Source of the DNA: Clostridia bacterium
GTDB lineage: Bacteria; Bacillota; Clostridia; Oscillospirales; CAG-272
Direction of reading: 5' to 3'
Assembly (NCBI GenBank): GCA_017456985.1
Contig: JAFTIH010000027.1
Coordinates: 1,575 to 65,574 of the forward strand
DNA length: 64,000 bases
Made by a program: the position numbers and the translations under genes. This document shows, one piece after another, positions 238-9,929 of this stretch (positions are counted from its first letter, which is position 1; the number at the start of each line of letters is the position of its first letter). The notes under the pieces are model-generated. The model was not told where the DNA came from and searched no databases. It saw only the letters and a program-made list of their open reading frames with translations.

Positions 238-266
238 TTGACAAAAGGAAAAAGGGATGCTATAAT
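238..266 (+). promoter_or_regulatory. Sigma-70-type promoter for T-box leader 1
   Basis: TTGACA (238-243), a 17 nt spacer, then TATAAT (261-266), immediately upstream of the T-box leader. Confidence 0.6.
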
Positions 267-282
267 TTCTACATAATTTTAA

Positions 283-547
283 AGGCTGTGACGAAGACGG
301 ACGCGGCAAAAGCCTCCCCCAGAGAGTCGGTGACGGTGGAAATCCGACGGTGTGCGTGCCGAATGTCTTATCCCTTCCGAGCTGAGAGTCTGAAAGCGTG
401 CGCAAGTAAGGTTCTCCGTATGGCTGCGTAAAAGCACAGAGCTTGTTAGAGCTCATAAAGTGGCGCTACGGCGCAATTTGAGTGGTACCGCGGATAGTTT
501 TTTATGATCCGTCTCAAAGAAATCTTTGGGACGGATCTTTTGTTTTT
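283..547 (+). promoter_or_regulatory. T-box riboswitch leader 1 (tRNA-sensing transcription attenuator)
   Basis: K-turn-like GUGACGAAG at the Stem I base. AGAGAG box plus a GGUGGAAAU distal region. Conserved T-box sequence AATTTGAGTGGTACCGCGG at 475-493. Intrinsic terminator GATCCGTCTC...GGGACGGATC plus a T-run at 506-547, whose 5' arm can instead pair with GCGGAT of the T-box to form an antiterminator. Confidence 0.85.
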
Positions 548-580
548 CATTAAAACACTTTTGAAAGGAGAAAACACAAA

Positions 581-2845
581 ATGAAGGACACGAAAAATTC
601 TTTGATGGAGGTTGCCGCCCGCATTCGCGACCTGCGTGAAATTCTTGGGTTTTCGACTGCACAAATGGCGGAAAAAACGGACGTAGAGGAGGCAAAATAC
701 CTGCTTTATGAAGAGGGAGGCGTGGATCTTCCCTTTACGTTCATTCATAAATGCGCTCTCGCCTTCGGCGTAGAGATGAGCGACTTGCTTGAGGGACGCA
801 GCGCAAAGCTTTCCTCTTACACCGTGACGCGTCGGGGCAAGGGACAGCTGACGGCGAAGGAGGACGGCATCGAGATCTCCCATCTCGCCCCCAACTTCCG
901 CGGCAAGATCGCGGAGCCCTACTACGTGCGCTACGAGTATTCGGAGGCGCTGCAAAACAAGCCGATCCATTTGACCACGCACGGCGGTCAGGAGTTTGAC
1001 CTTGTCATCTCGGGCTCGCTCAAGGTGCAGGTCGGTGAGCACACCGTCGTGCTTGAAGAGGGCGACAGCATCTATTACGAGAGCGGCACCCCCCACGGTA
1101 TGATCGCCGTTGGCGGCAAGGAGTGCATATTCTGCGCCGTCGTGCTTCCCGGAGAAGACGAGGCGGACGAGGAAAAGCTCGTCGAGAGCATCGCCGCATC
1201 GGGCAAGCGGGAGAAGTTGCTGATCAGCAATTTCATCAAATGCACCGAGGATGAGCGCGGCGTTTTGACGGATATCGCCTTTGAGAACGAAGAAAAATAC
1301 AACTTTGCCTTTGATACGGTGGACGCCCTTGCCGACAAGTATCCCGACAAGCTCGCGATGCTTCACCTGGATGCGAACAAGGTCGAGCGCCGCTTCACCT
1401 TCCGTGACCTCAAGCGTGAGAGCGCCCGTGCCGCCAACTACTTTAAATCTCTTGGCATCGGCAAGGGCGACCGCGTGATGCTGGTCTTAAAGCGTCACTA
1501 TCAGTTCTGGTTCGCGATCCTCGGTCTGCACAAGCTGGGCGCCGTAGCGATCCCCGCGACCAATCAGCTCAAAGCCCACGACTTCGCCTACCGCTTCGGC
1601 GCCGCCGACGTCAAGGCGATCCTTTGCACCGCGACGGATAAGACCTCGTGTGAGGTCGATCTTGCGGCGGCAGAGTCCCCCTCGCTCACGACCAAGATCC
1701 TCGTGGGCGGCTCGCGTGAGGGCTGGCACGATTTCGACGAGGAGTATGCACTCTTCAGCACGCATTTCCACCGCACCGAGGACACCGCTTGCGGTTCCGA
1801 CCCGATGCTTATGTTCTTTACCTCGGGCACGACGGGCTACCCCAAGATCGCGGCACACAGCTTTAAGTATGCGCTCGGTCATTTTCCCACGGCGCGCTAT
1901 TGGCACGACGTCCGTCCTACCGACTTGCACTTAACCATCTCCGAAACGGGCTGGGGCAAGGCACTTTGGGGCAAGCTCTACGGTCAGTGGATGGCAGAGG
2001 GCGCGGTCTTTACCTACGACTTCGATCGCTTCCATGCCGCCGATATCCTGCCCCTCTTTGCAAAATACCGCATCACCACCTTCTGCGCACCTCCCACGAT
2101 GTACCGTATGCTCATCAAGGAGGATCTTTCGGGATACGATCTTTCCTCTATCCGCCACGCAACGACGGCGGGCGAGGCACTCAACCCCGAGGTCTTTACG
2201 CAGTTTAAGAAGGCGACGGGACTTTCCATTATGGAGGGCTTCGGACAGACCGAGACCACGCTGACCATCGGTAATATGGCAGGCACGACACCCCGCTCGG
2301 GCTCGATGGGTAAGGCGATGCCGCTTTACGATATCGACGTCGTGGATGCGGACGGCAACAGCGTTGGCATCGGTGAAAACGGCGAGATCGTCGTGCGCAC
2401 CGACAAGAGTGTCCCTTGCGGACTTTTCCTTGGTTATTACAAGGATGAGGAGCGCACGAAGGAGGTCTGGCACGACGGGATGTACCATACGGGCGACGTG
2501 GCGTGGCGTGACGAGGACGGCTACTTCTATTACGTGAGCCGTATCGACGACGTCATCAAGTCCTCGGGCTACCGCATCGGTCCGTTTGAGATCGAAAACG
2601 TGATCATGGAGCTTCCTTACGTTCTTGAATGCGGCGTTTCCGCCGCGCCCGACGAGGTGCGCGGTCAGGTCGTCAAGGCGTCGATCGTCTTGACCAAGGG
2701 AACCGAGCCGAGCGAGGAGCTGAAGAAGGAGATCCAAGAGTACGTCAAAACGCACACCGCTCCCTACAAATATCCCAGAATCGTGGTGTTCCGCGACGAG
2801 CTCCCCAAGACCATCAGCGGCAAGATCATTCATAGCAAGCTGTAA
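581..2845 (+). CDS. Fusion protein: N-terminal XRE-type HTH plus cupin domain, C-terminal AMP-forming short/medium-chain acyl-CoA synthetase
   Basis: SD GAAAGGAG upstream. Residues 1-70 have an HTH_3-like pattern (LREILGFSTAQMAEKT). Residues ~90-190 are cupin-like (GGQEFDLVISG...GDSIYYESGTPHG). The remainder carries adenylate-forming enzyme motifs: FFTSGTTGYPK, GYYKDEE, YHTGD, SSGYRIGPFEIE and a C-terminal PKTISGKI. Confidence 0.85.
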   Translation: MKDTKNSLMEVAARIRDLREILGFSTAQMAEKTDVEEAKYLLYEEGGVDLPFTFIHKCALAFGVEMSDLLEGRSAKLSSYTVTRRGKGQLTAKEDGIEISHLAPNFRGKIAEPYYVRYEYSEALQNKPIHLTTHGGQEFDLVISGSLKVQVGEHTVVLEEGDSIYYESGTPHGMIAVGGKECIFCAVVLPGEDEADEEKLVESIAASGKREKLLISNFIKCTEDERGVLTDIAFENEEKYNFAFDTVDALADKYPDKLAMLHLDANKVERRFTFRDLKRESARAANYFKSLGIGKGDRVMLVLKRHYQFWFAILGLHKLGAVAIPATNQLKAHDFAYRFGAADVKAILCTATDKTSCEVDLAAAESPSLTTKILVGGSREGWHDFDEEYALFSTHFHRTEDTACGSDPMLMFFTSGTTGYPKIAAHSFKYALGHFPTARYWHDVRPTDLHLTISETGWGKALWGKLYGQWMAEGAVFTYDFDRFHAADILPLFAKYRITTFCAPPTMYRMLIKEDLSGYDLSSIRHATTAGEALNPEVFTQFKKATGLSIMEGFGQTETTLTIGNMAGTTPRSGSMGKAMPLYDIDVVDADGNSVGIGENGEIVVRTDKSVPCGLFLGYYKDEERTKEVWHDGMYHTGDVAWRDEDGYFYYVSRIDDVIKSSGYRIGPFEIENVIMELPYVLECGVSAAPDEVRGQVVKASIVLTKGTEPSEELKKEIQEYVKTHTAPYKYPRIVVFRDELPKTISGKIIHSKL

Positions 2846-2894
2846 GAGCTCCTAATATTACTATAATATTAAAGAAGAAAATTTAAAAAAACAC

Positions 2895-2923
2895 TTGACA
2901 AATACCGAAAGACTTGCTATACT
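2895..2923 (+). promoter_or_regulatory. Sigma-70-type promoter for T-box leader 2
   Basis: TTGACA (2895-2900), a 17 nt spacer, then TATACT (2918-2923). Confidence 0.55.
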
Positions 2924-2934
2924 GTTACCATAAA

Positions 2935-3216
2935 AGAATAAAAGGCGATGACGAAGAGGGCTGAGCAAACGGCGCCATCAGAGAACCGACGGTTGGTGCG
3001 AGTCGGCGGTGACGTGCTTTCGCTTGTAGCTTCCGAGCCGAGAGGAAGAAAGCGAAAGCCGTAGAACCTCTCCGTGATTGCTGCGTAAAGGCATAGGACT
3101 TATAGGAGTCCGAGAGTGGCGCCGTCATTGGCGCAATTTGAGTGGTACCGCGGGATATAAGAAATTATAGCTCGTCTCAAAGTATTTTATGTCTTTGAGG
3201 CGGGCTTTTGTTTTAT
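2935..3216 (+). promoter_or_regulatory. T-box riboswitch leader 2
   Basis: GAUGACGAAG K-turn region and an AGAGA box. The T-box sequence AATTTGAGTGGTACCGCGG (3135-3153) is identical to that of leader 1. Terminator AGCTCGTCTCAAAG...CTTTGAGGCGGGCT plus a T-run at 3169-3216. Confidence 0.85.
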
Positions 3217-3246
3217 TCTTTTTCCCCCTCGGAAAACGGAGGAACT

Positions 3247-5547
3247 ATGAACGATCAGATCAAGAGCCTTGATGCGAAGATCAAGGAAATGGCTGCCCGT
3301 ATTCGCGAGCTTCGCGAGATCGAACAGCTCACCGTGCGTGAGATGGCGAGAAAAACGGGTGTCAGCGAAGCCGAGTACACGGCTTGTGAGCGCGGAGAGA
3401 GCGACTTAAACTTCGCGTTTATCTACCGTTGCGCACAGGCGTTCAACGTGGACGTTACGGATATTATTGAGGGTACGAGCCCCCGCCTTGCCGCCTACAC
3501 CGTCACCCGCGCGGGTGAGGGTCAGCGTATCGAGCAGGCGCACGGTATGGTGTATTATAACCTTGCCTCGGCATTCCGTAACCGTATTGCCGAGCCCCTT
3601 CTCGTACACGCCGCATACAGCGCCGAGGCAGAGGCAAAGCCCATTGAAGTCACCACGCACGACGGTCAGGAGTGCGATATCGTGCTCACGGGCTCGCTTT
3701 GCGTCCAGGTGGGCAACCACAAGGTCGTGCTTCACGCGGGCGACAGCATTTATTACGATAGTAGTACCCCTCACGGTATGATTGCGACGGGCGGCAAGGA
3801 CTGCACCTTCTACGCGATGGTGCTGAACCCCTCGGGCGAGCCCATCCCCGAGCTTGAGCCCACCAAGACCGTACAGGAAACGGTGCGCCGCAAGGAAACG
3901 GTCACCGAGGACGGTCCCCGCGTCTATGAGAAGTGGGTGGATACCGAGGAGGACGAGCGCGGCGTGCTTCGCAAGATCTCCTTCAAAAACGAAAACGAGT
4001 TCAACTTCGCCTTTGACGTGGTGGACGCGCTTGCCGCAAGCAAGCCCGATAAGCTCGCGATGCTGCACCTCGACAAAAACAAGACCGAGCGCCGCTTTAC
4101 CTTCCGCGACATCAGCCGCGCGTCCAATCAGTGCGCCAACTACTTTAAGTCGCTGGGCATTGAGCGGGGCGACCGCGTGATGCTGGTCTTGAAGCGTCAT
4201 TATCAGTTCTGGTTCGCCGCGATCGCCTTACATAAGCTGGGCGCGGTGATGATCCCCGCAACCAACCAGCTCAAAGCGAAGGACTTTGCGTACCGCTTTG
4301 AGGCGGCGGGTGTCAATACCATCGTATGCACCGCAGACGACGGCACGGTGGATGAGGCAGAGATCGCTTGTGCAAGCTCTCCCTCCATCAAGAACAAGCT
4401 CATCGTCGGCGGCAAAAAAGAGGGCTGGCGCGATTTCGACGAGGAATATACCCTTTACAGCTCTCATTATACCAAGCCCGAAAACGCCCCCTGCGGCGAG
4501 GATCTGATGTTAATGTTCTTCACCTCGGGCACGACGGGCTACCCCAAGATCGCGGCGCATAACTACAAGTACGCGCTCGGTCACTTCTTAACCGCAAAAT
4601 ACTGGCACGGCGTCAACCCGAGCGGCTTGCACTTGACCATCTCGGATACGGGCTGGGCAAAGGCGCTGTGGGGCAAGCTCTACGGTCAGTGGATGGCTGA
4701 GGGTGCGACCTTCGTGTACGACTTTGATCGCTTCCACGCCGCAGATATTCTGCCCCTGTTCGCCAAGTACCATATCACCACCTTCTGCGCACCTCCCACG
4801 ATGTACCGTATGCTCATCAAGGAGGACCTGACGCGCTACGATATGTCCTCGGTCGAGCGTGCGACCATCGCGGGCGAGGCACTCAACCCCGAGGTCTTCC
4901 GTCAGCTTGAAAAGCTCACGGGTCTTAAAATTATGGAGGGCTTCGGTCAGTCCGAGGGCACGCTTATGATCGGTAATTTGCGCGGTGACTCCTACAAGAT
5001 CGGCGCGATGGGTAAGCCCGTACCCCTTTACGACGTGGATATCGTGGATCCCGACGGTAAGAGCGTTGGCATCGGTGAATCGGGCGAGATCGTCGTCCAC
5101 ACCGAAAACGGCGCCCCTTGCGGTCTGTTTACGGGCTACTACCGCGACGAGGAAAAGACGCGCGAGGCTTGGCACGACGGAATGTATCACACGGGTGACG
5201 TGGCGTGGCGCGATGAGGACGGCTTCTATTGGTACGTCGGACGCATCGACGACGTGATCAAGTCCTCGGGCTACCGCATCGGTCCGTTTGAGATCGAGAA
5301 CGTCATTATGGAGCTTCCTTACGTGCTTGAGTGCGGCGTTTCCGCCGCTCCCGACCCCGTGCGCGGACAGGTCGTGAAGGCGTCCATCGTCTTGACCAAG
5401 GGAACCGAGCCGAGTGACGACCTCAAAAAGGAAATTCAGGACTACGTCAAGCAAAAGACGGCGCCCTACAAGTACCCCCGTATCGTCGTGTTCCGTGAGG
5501 AGCTTCCCAAGACGACGAGCGGCAAGATCATTCGCAATAAGCTGTAA
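3247..5547 (+). CDS. Paralogous fusion protein: XRE HTH plus cupin plus AMP-forming acyl-CoA synthetase
   Basis: Same architecture and motifs as 581-2845 (FFTSGTTGYPK, YHTGD, SSGYRIGPFEIE, PKTTSGKI). I chose ATG 3247 (SD ACGGAGGA) over the track start at 3208, because 3208 lies inside the T-box terminator. Confidence 0.85.
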   Translation: MNDQIKSLDAKIKEMAARIRELREIEQLTVREMARKTGVSEAEYTACERGESDLNFAFIYRCAQAFNVDVTDIIEGTSPRLAAYTVTRAGEGQRIEQAHGMVYYNLASAFRNRIAEPLLVHAAYSAEAEAKPIEVTTHDGQECDIVLTGSLCVQVGNHKVVLHAGDSIYYDSSTPHGMIATGGKDCTFYAMVLNPSGEPIPELEPTKTVQETVRRKETVTEDGPRVYEKWVDTEEDERGVLRKISFKNENEFNFAFDVVDALAASKPDKLAMLHLDKNKTERRFTFRDISRASNQCANYFKSLGIERGDRVMLVLKRHYQFWFAAIALHKLGAVMIPATNQLKAKDFAYRFEAAGVNTIVCTADDGTVDEAEIACASSPSIKNKLIVGGKKEGWRDFDEEYTLYSSHYTKPENAPCGEDLMLMFFTSGTTGYPKIAAHNYKYALGHFLTAKYWHGVNPSGLHLTISDTGWAKALWGKLYGQWMAEGATFVYDFDRFHAADILPLFAKYHITTFCAPPTMYRMLIKEDLTRYDMSSVERATIAGEALNPEVFRQLEKLTGLKIMEGFGQSEGTLMIGNLRGDSYKIGAMGKPVPLYDVDIVDPDGKSVGIGESGEIVVHTENGAPCGLFTGYYRDEEKTREAWHDGMYHTGDVAWRDEDGFYWYVGRIDDVIKSSGYRIGPFEIENVIMELPYVLECGVSAAPDPVRGQVVKASIVLTKGTEPSDDLKKEIQDYVKQKTAPYKYPRIVVFREELPKTTSGKIIRNKL

Positions 5548-5550
5548 GAT

Positions 5551-6207
5551 ATGAAAATGAATCCAAAACGCGTGACCCTCTTTGCAGGGCATTACGGAAG
5601 CGGAAAAACGAATATCGCGGTCAACTACGCCCTAAAAATGGCAGAGGCGGGGCTTCCCGTCACCATTGCGGACCTTGATATCGTCAATCCCTATTTCCGC
5701 ACCAAGGACAGCGCAGAGGACCTCGCCCGTGCGGGCGTCGCGCTGATCTCCTCGGCATACGCCAACACCAACGTGGACCTGCCCGCGTTGCCTGCGGAGC
5801 TGTACGCTCTGACGCAGAACCGCGACCGCTACGCCGTGCTTGACGTGGGCGGCGACGACCGCGGCGCACTGGCACTGGGCAGGTATACCCCCGCCATCCT
5901 CGAGGAAGGGAACTACGAGATGATCTTCGTTGCGAACTTCTATCGTCCTTTGACCCCGACGGCAGAGGATGCTATTGAGGTGATGCGGGAGATCGAGACG
6001 GCAGGAGGGATCCCCTTTACCGCCATCGTACACAATTCAAATCTCGGAGAAGAAACGACCGCACAGGATATTCTCGCCAAGGAGGCGGAGGCAGGGCGCC
6101 TATCGGCGCTCACGGGGCTTCCCATCCTCTTTACGGCGGCACCCGTATCCTTGGCGCCCTCGCTCTCTGAGAGCTTTCCCCTCGTATTACAGAAGAAAAT
6201 AACATAA
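5551..6207 (+). CDS. P-loop NTPase of unknown role (Walker A GHYGSGKT)
   Basis: N-terminal Walker A motif GxxGxGKT. Hydrophobic strand plus Asp (VLDVGGDD), consistent with Walker B. It starts 4 nt after the stop of the preceding synthetase gene. Confidence 0.5.
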   Translation: MKMNPKRVTLFAGHYGSGKTNIAVNYALKMAEAGLPVTIADLDIVNPYFRTKDSAEDLARAGVALISSAYANTNVDLPALPAELYALTQNRDRYAVLDVGGDDRGALALGRYTPAILEEGNYEMIFVANFYRPLTPTAEDAIEVMREIETAGGIPFTAIVHNSNLGEETTAQDILAKEAEAGRLSALTGLPILFTAAPVSLAPSLSESFPLVLQKKIT

Positions 6208-6223
6208 AAGGACGGACAAAAAA

Positions 6224-6430
6224 ATGGCAAAAGTGACATTTGACACCGACCTTTGCAAGGGCTGCGGACTTTGTGTGAACGCCTGCCCCAAGAAGATCCT
6301 CGTGATCGCAAAGGACAAGATCAACAAGAAAGGACATTCTCCTGCCGAGATGACGGACGAGAGCAAGTGCATTGGCTGCGCATTCTGCGCGACGATGTGT
6401 CCCGACTGCGTCATCCGCGTAGAGAAATAA
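6224..6430 (+). CDS. 2x[4Fe-4S] ferredoxin-type delta subunit of 2-oxoacid:ferredoxin oxidoreductase
   Basis: Two CxxCxxCxxxCP motifs (CKGCGLCVNACP and CIGCAFCATMCP) in 68 aa, directly upstream of the alpha subunit. Confidence 0.85.
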   Translation: MAKVTFDTDLCKGCGLCVNACPKKILVIAKDKINKKGHSPAEMTDESKCIGCAFCATMCPDCVIRVEK

Positions 6431-6440
6431 GGAGGCACAT

Positions 6441-7499
6441 ATGGCAAACAAGGTACTTATGAAGGGTAACGAGGCAATTGCCGAGGCGGCGATCCTTGCG
6501 GGATGCCGTCATTACTTCGGTTACCCCATCACCCCTCAAACGGAGATCGCCGCGTATATGGCAAAGCGTATGCCCAAGATCGGCGGCGTGTTCCTTCAGG
6601 CGGAGAGTGAGGTCTCCGCGATCAATATGGTTTACGGCGTTGCAGGCGCAGGCTTCCGCGTGATGACCTCCTCCTCCAGCCCCGGAATTTCCCTCAAGGC
6701 AGAGGGTATCTCCTATATCGCAGGCAGCGACCTTCCCGCGCTCATCGTCAACGTACAGCGCGGCGGCCCCGGTCTTGGCGGCATCCAGCCCTCCCAGTCG
6801 GACTATTTCCAGGCAACGCGCGGTGGCGGTCACGGTGACTACCATCTGCTCGTTTACGCTCCCGCCTCCGTGCAGGAGATGGCTGACCTGACCGTTCTCG
6901 GCTTTGAGAAGGCAGACGAATACCGTATGCCCGCGATGATCCTTGCCGACGGTACGATGGGTCAGATGATGGAGCCCGTGGAGCTTCCCTCGGGCGAAAG
7001 CAAGACCTTTGAAAAGCCCTGGGCGCTCAGCGGCACCAAGTGCGAGCGTCCCCACAACGTCGTCAACTCTCTCTACCTCAAGCCCGAAAAGCTCGAGGAG
7101 GTCAACTTTGCACGCTACGAGCGTTACCGCAAGATCGAAGAGACCGAAACGATGTACGAGTCCTACTTGATGGAGGACGCAGAATATTGCGTGGTTGCCT
7201 TCGGTATTGCCGCACGCGTGGCAAAGAACGCCGTCATCGCGGCACGTGCCAAGGGCATCCGCGTGGGTATGATCCGTCCGATCACCCTGTGGCCCTTCCC
7301 CAAGGCACCCCTTGCCGAGGCGGCAAAGACGGTCAAGGCGTTCCTCTCGGTCGAGCTCTCGATGGGTCAGATGATCGAGGACGTCGAGCTTGCGACCCGC
7401 TCGCAGAAGCCCGTTCTGCTTTGCAACCGCGCAGGCGGTATGATCCCCACGCCCGAAGAGGTGCTTGGTGCGATCGAGAATATGACGAAAGGAGTATAA
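6441..7499 (+). CDS. 2-oxoacid:ferredoxin oxidoreductase alpha subunit (VorB/KorA-like)
   Basis: N-terminus MKGNEAIAEAAILAGCRHYFGYPITPQTEI is typical of the OFOR alpha family. Operon position is between the delta and beta subunits. Confidence 0.85.
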   Translation: MANKVLMKGNEAIAEAAILAGCRHYFGYPITPQTEIAAYMAKRMPKIGGVFLQAESEVSAINMVYGVAGAGFRVMTSSSSPGISLKAEGISYIAGSDLPALIVNVQRGGPGLGGIQPSQSDYFQATRGGGHGDYHLLVYAPASVQEMADLTVLGFEKADEYRMPAMILADGTMGQMMEPVELPSGESKTFEKPWALSGTKCERPHNVVNSLYLKPEKLEEVNFARYERYRKIEETETMYESYLMEDAEYCVVAFGIAARVAKNAVIAARAKGIRVGMIRPITLWPFPKAPLAEAAKTVKAFLSVELSMGQMIEDVELATRSQKPVLLCNRAGGMIPTPEEVLGAIENMTKGV

Positions 7500-7502
7500 G
7501 CG

Positions 7503-8261
7503 ATGAGCGTTGTATTTGAAAAACCCAAATCTTTGGCAAACGTCCCCTTCCACTACTGCCCCGGATGCACGCACGGTATCATTCACCGTCTGGTTGCCGA
7601 GGCGATCGACGAGCTGGGCATTGAAGGCCGCGCCATCGGCGTTGCTCCCGTCGGCTGTGCCGTTATGGCATACGACTATTTTACCTGTGATATGATCGAG
7701 GCGGCACACGGCAGAGCCCCCGCCGTTGCGACGGGCATCAAGCGCGCGCGCCCCGAGAATATCGTCTTCACCTATCAGGGTGACGGCGACCTTGCCTCCA
7801 TCGGTATGGCGGAAACCGTACACGCGGCGGCAAGAAACGAGAACATCACCATCATCTTCGTCAACAACGCGATCTACGGTATGACGGGCGGTCAGATGGC
7901 ACCCACCTCGCTCCCCGGTCAGGTCACCCAGACCTCGCCCTACGGACGCGACGTCAAGCTGACGGGCTATCCCGTCAAGGTTGCCGAGCTGCTTTCCGCA
8001 CTCGACGGTCCTACCTATATTGAGCGCGTTGCCGTGAACAACGTCAAGAACGTGAAGGCGGCAAAGAAGGCGATCCTCAAGGCGTTCAAGAACCAGGTCG
8101 AGGGCCGTGGCTTCTCGCTCATCGAGGTCGTTTCCTCCTGCCCCACCAACTGGGGTATGACGCCCGAAAAGGCGCTCGAATGGGTTGACGAGAAGATGAT
8201 CCCCTATTATCCTCTCGGCGTATATCGCGATAAGACGGCAGAAACGGAGGAGAAGGCATGA
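7503..8261 (+). CDS. 2-oxoacid:ferredoxin oxidoreductase beta subunit (thiamine diphosphate-binding)
   Basis: Cys motif FHYCPGCTHG and TPP-binding GDGD...NNAIYGMTGGQ. Confidence 0.85.
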   Translation: MSVVFEKPKSLANVPFHYCPGCTHGIIHRLVAEAIDELGIEGRAIGVAPVGCAVMAYDYFTCDMIEAAHGRAPAVATGIKRARPENIVFTYQGDGDLASIGMAETVHAAARNENITIIFVNNAIYGMTGGQMAPTSLPGQVTQTSPYGRDVKLTGYPVKVAELLSALDGPTYIERVAVNNVKNVKAAKKAILKAFKNQVEGRGFSLIEVVSSCPTNWGMTPEKALEWVDEKMIPYYPLGVYRDKTAETEEKA

Positions 8262-8797
8262 AGACGACCAACCTTTTGATTGCAGGCTTCGGCGGACAGG
8301 GCGTCCTGTTCGCAGGTAAGTTCCTCGCTTACAAGGGACTCCTTGAGGGCAAGCAGCTCAGCTGGCTCCCCTCCTACGGTCCCGAAATGCGCGGCGGTAC
8401 GGCGAACTGCTCCGTCATCATCAGCGACGAGCCCGTCGGCTCTCCCATCGTGTCCAACCCCGACGTTCTGATGGTAATGAACCTGCCCTCGCTTGACAAA
8501 TACGAGGATGCGACCGTCGCAGGCGGCAAGATCTTCGTGGACTCCACGCTCATTGAGCGCAAGGTAGAGCGCACGGACGTGGATGCGTACTACATTCCCG
8601 CGACCCGTCTTGCCAAGGAAGCAGGCTTCCCCACGCTCGCCAATATGATCATGGTGGGCAAGCTCATCAAGGAAACGGGTATGGTGTCCTTTGATGGCAT
8701 CCGCGAGGCGCTCTCCAAGGTCGTTTCCGCAAAGCACGCCGATCTGCTTGAGATCAACCTCAAGGCGATCGAAACGGGCTACAACTACGCAGAATAA
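8258..8797 (+). CDS. 2-oxoacid:ferredoxin oxidoreductase gamma subunit
   Basis: GFGGQGVLFAGKFLA N-terminal motif of the OFOR gamma family. 4-nt overlap with the beta subunit gene. Confidence 0.8.
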   Translation: MKTTNLLIAGFGGQGVLFAGKFLAYKGLLEGKQLSWLPSYGPEMRGGTANCSVIISDEPVGSPIVSNPDVLMVMNLPSLDKYEDATVAGGKIFVDSTLIERKVERTDVDAYYIPATRLAKEAGFPTLANMIMVGKLIKETGMVSFDGIREALSKVVSAKHADLLEINLKAIETGYNYAE

Positions 8798-8861
8798 CCG
8801 AATCACTTTTCACTATGGATTTCCCCGCCTCGGTGCGGGATAAAGAAAGAAGGAAAAACAG

Positions 8862-9929
8862 ATGTTAAACATCAGAATTGAAAAGACCACCGCCCCCAAG
8901 GCAAAGCCTGCAAAGGGCGAGAAGCTCGGCTTCGGTCATATCTTTACCGACCATATGTTCGTGATGAACTATACCGAGGGCAAGGGCTGGTACGATCCCC
9001 GCATCGTGCCTTATCAGAACCTTTCGCTCTCTCCCGCCTCGATGGTGTTCCACTACGGTCAGGAGATGTTCGAGGGGCTGAAAGCGTACAAGGGTGAGGA
9101 CGACAAGGTCTACCTGTTCCGCCCCGATATGAACGCAAAGCGCGCGAACCAGTCTAACGACCGTCTTTGCATCCCCAACATCCCCGAGGAGGATTTCGTG
9201 GAGGCGGTCCGCGCTCTCGTTGAGGTAGAGCAGGATTGGATCCCCACCGATCCCGGCACCTCGCTTTATATTCGTCCCTTCGTGATCGCAACGGACGATT
9301 TCCTGGGTGTTGCGCCCTCTAAAAATTATCTGTTCCTCGTCATCGTTTCTCCCTCGGGTGCGTACTACGCAAGCGGTCTTGCCCCTGTTGGCATCTGGAT
9401 CGAGGACGAGTACGTCCGTGCCGTCAAGGGCGGTATGGGCTTTGCTAAGACGGGCGGTAACTACGCCGCGTCCCTTATCGCACAGGTCAAGGCACACGAC
9501 GATGGTTATTCGCAGGTCTTGTGGTTGGACGGTGTGGAAAGAAAGTACATTGAAGAGGTTGGCGCGATGAACATCTTCTTCAAGATCGCGGGCAAGGTCG
9601 TAACGCCTATGCTCAACGGCAGTATTCTTCCCGGTGTCACCCGTAACTCCGTGCTGACGCTTTGCCGCGCTTGGGGATACGAGGTCGAGGAGCGCCGCAT
9701 CTCGGTGGACGAGCTGGTTGCCGCCGCCAAGGACGGTACGCTCGAGGAGGTCTTCGGTACGGGTACGGCGGCAGTCGTTTCGCCTGTCGGTAAGCTCCGT
9801 TATATGAATGACGTGATGCAGATCGGCGGCGGTGAGATCGGCGAGCTGACGCAGAAGCTGTACGACGAGATCACGGGCATTCAGTGGGGCAAGCGCCCCG
9901 ATCCCTTCGGCTGGAGAGTCGAGGTCTAA
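8862..9929 (+). CDS. ilvE: Branched-chain amino acid aminotransferase
   Basis: 355 aa with class IV aminotransferase motifs: FTDHMF, HYGQEMFEGLKAY, GGNYAASL, EEVGAMNIFF, ILPGVTR. Confidence 0.9.
   Translation: MLNIRIEKTTAPKAKPAKGEKLGFGHIFTDHMFVMNYTEGKGWYDPRIVPYQNLSLSPASMVFHYGQEMFEGLKAYKGEDDKVYLFRPDMNAKRANQSNDRLCIPNIPEEDFVEAVRALVEVEQDWIPTDPGTSLYIRPFVIATDDFLGVAPSKNYLFLVIVSPSGAYYASGLAPVGIWIEDEYVRAVKGGMGFAKTGGNYAASLIAQVKAHDDGYSQVLWLDGVERKYIEEVGAMNIFFKIAGKVVTPMLNGSILPGVTRNSVLTLCRAWGYEVEERRISVDELVAAAKDGTLEEVFGTGTAAVVSPVGKLRYMNDVMQIGGGEIGELTQKLYDEITGIQWGKRPDPFGWRVEV

Follow-up and report, generated by a model that had tools for sequence, protein, structure and literature searches.

HTH-cupin modules fused to AMP-forming acyl-CoA synthetases of Clostridia: a putative sensor domain in branched-acid salvage

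Branched short-chain fatty acids are a requirement of many Clostridia of gut and rumen, and the salvage of these acids, whose rumen biochemistry has been known since the 1960s, has to our knowledge never been described at the regulatory level. Enzymes that carry a DNA-binding type of fold are known, as in BirA, an adenylate-forming ligase with an N-terminal helix-turn-helix (HTH) domain, and HTH-like and cupin domains are paired without DNA binding in HppE, HEPD and MPnS. Among ligases, MacsMa and MbcS have a preference for short branched acids, 2-methylbutyrate and isobutyrate among them (PMC10026030). The subject here is a window of 64,000 nucleotides from a Clostridia bacterium (contig JAFTIH010000027.1 of assembly GCA_017456985.1, positions 1,575 to 65,574 of the forward strand), in which two genes, ORF1 and ORF2, each encode an XRE-like HTH and a cupin joined in one polypeptide to a full AMP-forming acyl-CoA synthetase. 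Comparative evidence suggests, with about an even chance of being right, that the HTH-cupin module serves in cis as a small-molecule sensor or regulatory domain of its own ligase, both the ligand and the effect on the enzyme being proposals drawn from that comparison.

The fusion and its split counterpart

The two genes and their parts are as follows, with amino acids (aa) numbered from the start of each protein.

581..2845, + strand: ORF1, ATG start, 754 aa, HTH-cupin-acyl-CoA synthetase, Ile-gated paralogue A
602..796, + strand: ORF1 XRE-like HTH, aa 8-72, five helices, net charge -7
845..1150, + strand: ORF1 cupin barrel, aa 89-190, Cupin_2, with invariant H134, E138 and H172
1151..1276, + strand: ORF1 linker, aa 191-232, acidic and weakly conserved, aa 193-207 predicted disordered
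1277..2842, + strand: ORF1 AMP-forming acyl-CoA synthetase, aa 233-754
3247..5547, + strand: ORF2, 766 aa, HTH-cupin-acyl-CoA synthetase, Val-gated paralogue B
3280-3477, + strand: ORF2 HTH, aa 12-77
3514-3831, + strand: ORF2 cupin, about aa 90-195
aa 245-766 of ORF2, + strand: ORF2 synthetase, AMP-binding plus AMP-binding_C

ORF2 is listed from a TTG at 3208 (3208..5547); its start is most likely the ATG at 3247, because a GGAGG at 3238-3242 sits 4 nt before it. From end to end the two proteins are 67% identical. An earlier, sequence-only reading of this DNA had recognised an HTH, a cupin and an AMP-binding enzyme in both, and that assignment is right, the peptides it quoted being present in both window proteins. 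In ORF1, Pfam places AMP-binding at 251-620 (E 3e-63), AMP-binding_C at 670-748 and Cupin_2 at 133-187 with 47.8 bits (cut-off 27.2), and HTH_19 at 13-72 scores 21 bits, under its cut-off of 30.2; in ORF2 every domain exceeds its cut-off, namely AMP-binding, AMP-binding_C, Cupin_2 (46.7 bits), HTH_19 (36.4 bits) and HTH_3 (31.4 bits). Across the pair, PF00501 is matched at E 3e-63 and 2e-60 and PF13193 at E 2e-21. The structure prediction which that reading had proposed was run with AlphaFold2 and gives, at high confidence, a module of five N-terminal helices followed by a beta-barrel. The helices of the ORF1 HTH span 8-22, 26-32, 37-45, 52-62 and 66-71 with a predicted local confidence (pLDDT) of 88-97; the module alone reaches a pLDDT of 86.6 and the whole protein 82.7 (predicted template-modelling score, pTM, 0.68), with values below 50 at linker residues 193-207.

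Relatives were sought in one genome per GTDB species, at least 594 species genomes encode one, and the 80 loci studied are the best 80 of these, all from metagenome-assembled genomes of gut, faecal or rumen Clostridia. A tandem pair is present in about two thirds of the loci. Beyond them, a module homologue occurs at E <= 1e-20 in 223 of 400 genomes sampled evenly from the Clostridia, and among the 150 best matches in that sample about 110 lie in frames of 690-820 aa and about 40 in frames of 185-250 aa. The window genome holds the two fused copies and no further module. Public annotation knows the fused protein as 'AMP-binding protein', and literature searches for an HTH-cupin-ligase fusion found no paper. 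The fusion is thus unusual, as had been claimed, among characterised proteins; in nature it is not, being widespread in Clostridia with a split-gene counterpart, and HTH-cupin ligases are among the most widespread proteins of uncharacterised domain architecture in that class. A different cupin fusion is seen in P0224 of the representative library (401 aa), a cytidylate kinase with a C-terminal cupin of the same broad family and no Pfam HTH match.

In the split form, free-standing HTH-cupin genes encode 188-203 aa (about 195 aa), and at 17 of 19 of them an unfused ligase gene, 53-62% identical to the window catalytic part, follows directly 3' at a gap of 0-20 nt or with stop/start overlap. This adjacency marks the module as a dedicated partner of this ligase type. 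Ten larger regions around split pairs contained neither VOR nor IlvE genes, the neighbours being unrelated ones such as YkuD and ClpB-like, so that the conserved unit is module plus ligase, whether as one gene or two. Two HTH-cupin genes of the same subfamily (L121:7684-8295 and L122:7964-8530) have no adjoining ligase; locus L120 reads module, ligase, YkuD, ClpB-like and L121 reads module, YkuD, ClpB-like, an order that points to loss of the ligase gene in one lineage. In a tree of modules the Ile-type and Val-type sequences form well-supported sister clades, which places the duplication after the fusion, and the split genes group into one or two clades; the tree was rooted on PuuR, whose very long branch makes the root unreliable for deciding between fusion first and fission first.

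That separate regulator and ligase genes were merely joined by a sequencing or assembly error carries a vanishingly small probability. The existence of the split arrangement in other lineages would lend itself to such an account, but the 80 genomes contain 127 independent module/synthetase pairs in one frame with just one internal stop, both window copies are open, and the sister-clade topology makes the duplication later than the fusion. On the same counts a pseudogene was rejected, and the claim that the fusion is genuine is upheld. The six unlinked N-modules in the 80 genomes all lie at contig ends, and a homologue search with the isolated module recovered only contig-end fragments of fused proteins. 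Within orthologue groups identity is 63-71% in the HTH, 72% in the cupin, 73-75% in the catalytic N-domain and 42-47% in the linker. Conservation of HTH and cupin near the level of the catalytic domain, and not of the linker, supports the further claim that retention in both paralogues reflects function.

The cupin site, the T-box leaders and the acidic HTH

Each fused gene has a strong promoter and a T-box leader of its own.

238..266, + strand: promoter 1, TTGACA at 238-243, 17-nt spacer, TG-extended TATAAT at 258-266
279..548, + strand: T-box leader 1, specifier AUC (Ile) at 370-372, T-box motif at 475-493, terminator at 506-548
2895..2923, + strand: promoter 2, TTGACA at 2895-2900, 17-nt spacer, TG-extended TATACT at 2915-2923
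2939..3216, + strand: T-box leader 2, specifier GUA (Val) at 3026-3028, T-box motif at 3135-3152, terminator at 3170-3216

Terminators and promoters were read from the sequence, and the specifiers were fixed in an alignment of about 100 leaders of orthologues. In this alignment the specifier is AUC in all 67 ORF1-type orthologues, and GUA (35) or GUC (3) in those of the ORF2 type. An Rfam scan at the gathering threshold gave no match, and the T-boxes emerge only in E-value mode, where RF00230 matches leader 1 in full length at 279-519 (75.8 bits, E 7e-16) and leader 2 at 2939-3182 (82.8 bits, E 1e-17), both below the gathering score of 93. As far as sequence can tell, both leaders possess the features of a T-box, with a stem I specifier loop, the T-box sequence and a terminator/antiterminator. 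The -35 and extended -10 consensus of promoter 1 is kept in 61 orthologous promoters and the pattern of promoter 2 in 37.

The evidence for a sensor begins with the cupin. H134, E138, H172, D140, D162 and S168 are invariant in 122 sequences, and in a profile alignment H134, E138 and H172 fall on the Fe ligand positions of HppE. Given that the same triad is common to PuuR and SutR, it marks a ligand or metal site and not catalysis, and is not diagnostic of an HppE-type enzyme. Between the paralogues the module is 47-53% identical and the ligase 68-88%, and 12 differences between A and B are strictly fixed: the module has 11 of them, five in its HTH and six in its cupin, and the catalytic part, 520 residues long, has a single one. 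This is as expected if the module specialised along with T-box amino acid identity, as an Ile- versus Val-specific metabolite sensor would.

A module of purely structural function, in which an HTH-cupin dimer would set the quaternary state of the ligase or a complex with VOR and sense nothing, is improbable, though it can draw on part of the same evidence: dimers are common among cupins, conservation of the module goes together with a flexible linker that tethers it, and residues fixed by paralogue could insulate A-A from B-B pairing. A mere scaffold, however, would need neither the H134/E138/H172 triad nor the equally invariant D140, D162 and S168, and the split pairs occur with no VOR nearby.

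Over the 65 residues of the HTH the net charge is -7 in ORF1 and -4 in ORF2, and the mean is -6.1 in 67 Ile-type, -5.7 in 38 Val-type and -5.0 in 53 free-standing modules; the range from -4 to -9 covers fused and split members alike, including all 18 split genes examined, T-box or no T-box. Over the same columns the proven Escherichia coli members PuuR and SutR carry +3 and +5, about 10 units more. The recognition helix has the consensus (S/T)xEEYxx(Y/C)ExG, and the usual base-contact positions of helix 3 are variable or are E, V, L or A. When the 61 and 37 promoters were aligned on their -35 elements, the conservation seen in the information content was confined to the -35, the extended -10 and, upstream, a stretch rich in A, with no operator. 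The best perfect inverted repeat per promoter averaged 5.64 nt against 5.15 in shuffles, a marginal excess with 9% of promoters at p <= 0.05, and comparison by eye of closely related split-gene promoters found no consistent operator. HppE, HEPD and MPnS, moreover, are precedents for the fold without any DNA contact. DNA binding by the module is doubtful on these grounds.

These observations bear directly on a second account, which we consider unlikely while giving it a real share of the probability, that the protein is a trigger enzyme or autorepressor resembling BirA, PutA or NadR, whose HTH would repress the promoter of its own gene as long as neither cupin nor active site holds branched acid or acyl-adenylate. 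Combined with the T-box, and with the same limited likelihood, this would form an AND gate between amino acid demand and substrate supply. Several facts speak for it. XRE-cupin family members are typically local repressors of adjacent metabolic enzyme genes (PMC7901475), which the split arrangement resembles. In most orthologues, as in ORF2, HTH_3 and HTH_19 pass the Pfam cut-offs; purifying selection acts on the HTH, and its helix 1 has two invariant arginines, R14 and R19. The split module is the first gene of a two-gene unit, and most such units have no T-box: an Ile-type T-box accompanies seven of 18 split genes, and the 11 pairs without one need some other transcriptional control. Isolated strong palindromes also overlap the -35 or -10 of a few core promoters (L007, L046, L013). 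Set against this account are an HTH that is strongly acidic in all members and lies about 10 charge units under those of PuuR and SutR, the E, V, L or A at the DNA-contact positions of helix 3, the want of any operator motif conserved across the 98 promoters, the 1:1 stoichiometry with an abundant enzyme, and the overlapping stops and starts of split pairs, an arrangement typical for subunits of a complex.

Most of the points that favour a repressor also weigh against a sensor of purely post-translational action, and there are others. The H/E/H triad is present in the true repressors PuuR and SutR and so cannot separate a sensor alone from a repressor; the calibration of net charge comes from these two known DNA binders only; the fixed differences between A and B could reflect paralogue-specific dimerisation instead of ligand choice; and whatever is said here of ligand, metal and effect on the enzyme is something that we infer. 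The sequence-only reading had offered three roles for the module. Of these, gating of the enzyme by a ligand fits the evidence best, its effect being conjectural, and autoregulation and a moonlighting repressor are both weakened by the acidic HTH, its acidic or hydrophobic contact positions, the lack of a conserved operator and the T-boxes that already gate transcription.

Probable salvage ligases, their operon and the proposed control

The catalytic part matches the Methanosarcina acetivorans ligase of PDB entry 3ETC at E 1e-186. The best NCBIfam model is MbcS (NF047394), at 430 and 435 bits under an equivalog cut-off of 850, which makes the window ligases a related subfamily and not equivalogs. 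ORF1 has the phosphate-binding loop FFTSGTTGYPK at 412-422, and the catalytic lysine of the SGK motif, K748 in ORF1 and K760 in ORF2, aligns with K609 of E. coli Acs. With N-domain, C-terminal domain, P-loop and lysine all present, both proteins can be placed among the AMP-forming acyl-CoA synthetases of the ANL superfamily. Two pocket residues of Acs, V386 and W414, have Ala and Gly as their counterparts here. The lone residue of the catalytic part that strictly differs between Ile-type and Val-type enzymes is G459 (codon 1955-1957) versus A471 (codon 4657-4659); it aligns with Acs V310, a known acyl-pocket residue. A Gly in place of Ala there would fit the one extra carbon of 2-methylbutyrate, so that G459/A471 is a candidate determinant of preference for 2-methylbutyrate or isobutyrate.

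In the window genome (1.8 Mb, 93.6% complete) searches for ilvB, ilvC and ilvD found no match, and neither leuB nor leuA scored over its cut-off; the organism is probably without de novo synthesis of branched-chain amino acids. On the strength of the VOR and IlvE genes downstream, the Ile and Val T-boxes, the kinship with 3ETC and MbcS, the pocket changes and the lack of ilvB, ilvC and ilvD matches, it is very probable that ORF1 and ORF2 serve a tRNA-gated Ile/Val salvage as its CoA ligases for 2-methylbutyrate and isobutyrate, with the substrates deduced from this context. The downstream genes, by NCBIfam and Pfam matches, are these, three of them encoding the subunits of a VorB-type 2-oxoacid:ferredoxin oxidoreductase (VOR).

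5551..9929, + strand: downstream operon
5551-6207, + strand: P-loop NTPase, 218 aa
6441-7499, + strand: VorB-like alpha subunit (NCBIfam/Pfam)
7503-8261, + strand: TPP beta subunit (NCBIfam/Pfam)
8258-8797, + strand: gamma subunit (NCBIfam/Pfam)
8862-9929, + strand: IlvE (NCBIfam/Pfam)

Most of the 80 loci have these genes in the same order. Between the stop of ORF1 and promoter 2 (2846-2938) no terminator-like hairpin was found, so transcripts from promoter 1 probably continue into T-box 2, and read-through that reaches the VOR-IlvE genes from the Ile unit may thus be gated by the Val leader as well. Shortly after the ORF1 stop, with about 25 nt left to the -35 of promoter 2 downstream, positions 2853-2871 read TAATATTA-cta-TAATATTA, a repeat not kept in the closest relative, L001. 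The P-loop NTPase has weak CbiA/ParA-like matches only and none in NCBIfam, and, with its place between ligase and VorB genes in almost all related loci, it is a conserved operon member. Some of the related loci have, 1-2 kb upstream of their fused pair, a third AMP-forming ligase that is unfused (for example L002:5199-6767, L006:5225-6793, L007:5197-6771 and L012:5160-6734); it is 24-28% identical to the window catalytic part and is absent from the window.

The pathway bears in turn on a further proposal, that the cupin is itself a metal enzyme of the HppE or EutQ kind, perhaps an isomerase, with the acid, the acyl-CoA or the 2-oxoacid as its substrate. We regard this as very improbable. The full-length match of the module profile to HppE (E 8e-5) does align the Fe ligands, Foldseek puts HppE, HEPD, MPnS and Psf4 just after the V. 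cholerae factor 1Y9Q, and there are weak EutQ-like cupin matches. Yet the triad also occurs in the non-catalytic regulators PuuR and SutR, the pathway has no missing step that calls for another enzyme, and HppE-type reactions need O2, a chemistry that would be implausible in hosts that are strict gut anaerobes. The paralogue for isobutyrate, which is achiral, keeps the same invariant residues, and for that reason a cupin epimerase was rejected as a general explanation.

The mechanism envisaged for the sensor would run as follows. As the first step, the ORF1 or ORF2 ligase would convert a branched acid (2-methylbutyrate or isobutyrate) to its acyl-CoA, which VOR would carboxylate reductively to the 2-oxoacid and IlvE would then turn into Ile or Val. 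The cupin would bind a pathway-specific small molecule through H134, E138 and H172, the candidates being the end-product amino acid, its 2-oxoacid, the branched acid or the acyl-CoA, and binding would shift the activity or the oligomeric state of the ligase. Such control would be fast and post-translational, would act on the first committed, ATP-consuming step, and would sit atop the slower control by T-boxes. The acidic HTH would serve as a structural or docking domain and not as an operator-binding one, with the flexible linker tethering the module to the ligase. More tentatively, and with the balance of probability somewhat against so full a picture, these proteins may represent a new class of regulated acyl-CoA synthetase in which a metal-cupin sensor, diverged for Ile- versus Val-specific metabolites, gates branched-acid salvage, and in which an acidic, DNA-mimicking HTH may dock onto a basic nucleotide/CoA cleft.

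These ligases are the entry point of a salvage that replaces the de novo Ile/Val pathway apparently missing here, and if the module is a sensor it would be the feedback control point of that salvage. Knowledge of its ligand and of its target, be it enzyme or DNA, would explain how demand, read by the T-box, is balanced against supply, and would provide a handle for studies of rumen nutrition and gut cross-feeding. If the sensor proposal is true, the module would also join the HppE-type enzymes as the second clear case in which an XRE-HTH/cupin pair has left transcription for another role.

Comparison with known systems

By fold, the N-terminal half belongs to the XRE-cupin factors (PuuR, SutR, the Pseudomonas aeruginosa proteins ErfA, PsdR and PauR, and 1Y9Q), with which it shares the same two domains in the same order and the same H/E/H site, as well as a tie to an adjacent metabolic enzyme gene (PMC7901475). 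The V. cholerae XRE-cupin protein 1Y9Q is its best PDB relative both by sequence profile and by Foldseek; a phmmer search of the PDB with the ORF1 module found no match, a profile being needed to reach PDB relatives, and the PuuR model matches the module only marginally, at 17-27 bits under a cut-off of 211. Two working features of the family seem to be missing. The factors are free-standing proteins of about 180-200 aa, whereas the window module is fused to a 520-aa ligase, and its HTH is acidic, with a recognition helix that has none of the usual polar or basic contacts and with no operator found. The phosphonate-metabolism enzymes HppE, HEPD, MPnS and Psf4 likewise combine an HTH-like alpha domain with a cupin whose metal ligands align with those of the module, and Foldseek relates them to it at E 1e-14 to 1e-9. 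They are, however, O2-dependent Fe enzymes of actinomycetes and marine bacteria, only about 19-20% identical to the module and unlinked to acyl-CoA ligases.

The catalytic half, judged by homology, is a new member of the MacsMa and MbcS kind, its close homologues being MacsMa of M. acetivorans (3ETC) and MbcS of Staphylococcus aureus. Those enzymes have been studied as ligases alone, whereas the window ligases carry the module, and the output of the window ligases would go to amino acid synthesis, unlike the fatty acid synthesis of the comparison. As single polypeptides that unite an enzyme with a DNA-binding type of fold, ORF1 and ORF2 resemble BirA, PutA and NadR, to which they have no sequence relationship. 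DNA binding is demonstrated for those three and doubtful for the module, and the window proteins have a cupin in between. Closest in proposed logic are the ACT-type feedback domains of the acetohydroxyacid synthase (AHAS) small subunit, threonine deaminase and isopropylmalate synthase (IPMS), where a ligand-binding domain is likewise attached to the first committed enzyme of a pathway; they differ in fold from the window module, a cupin in which binding of such a ligand is presumed.

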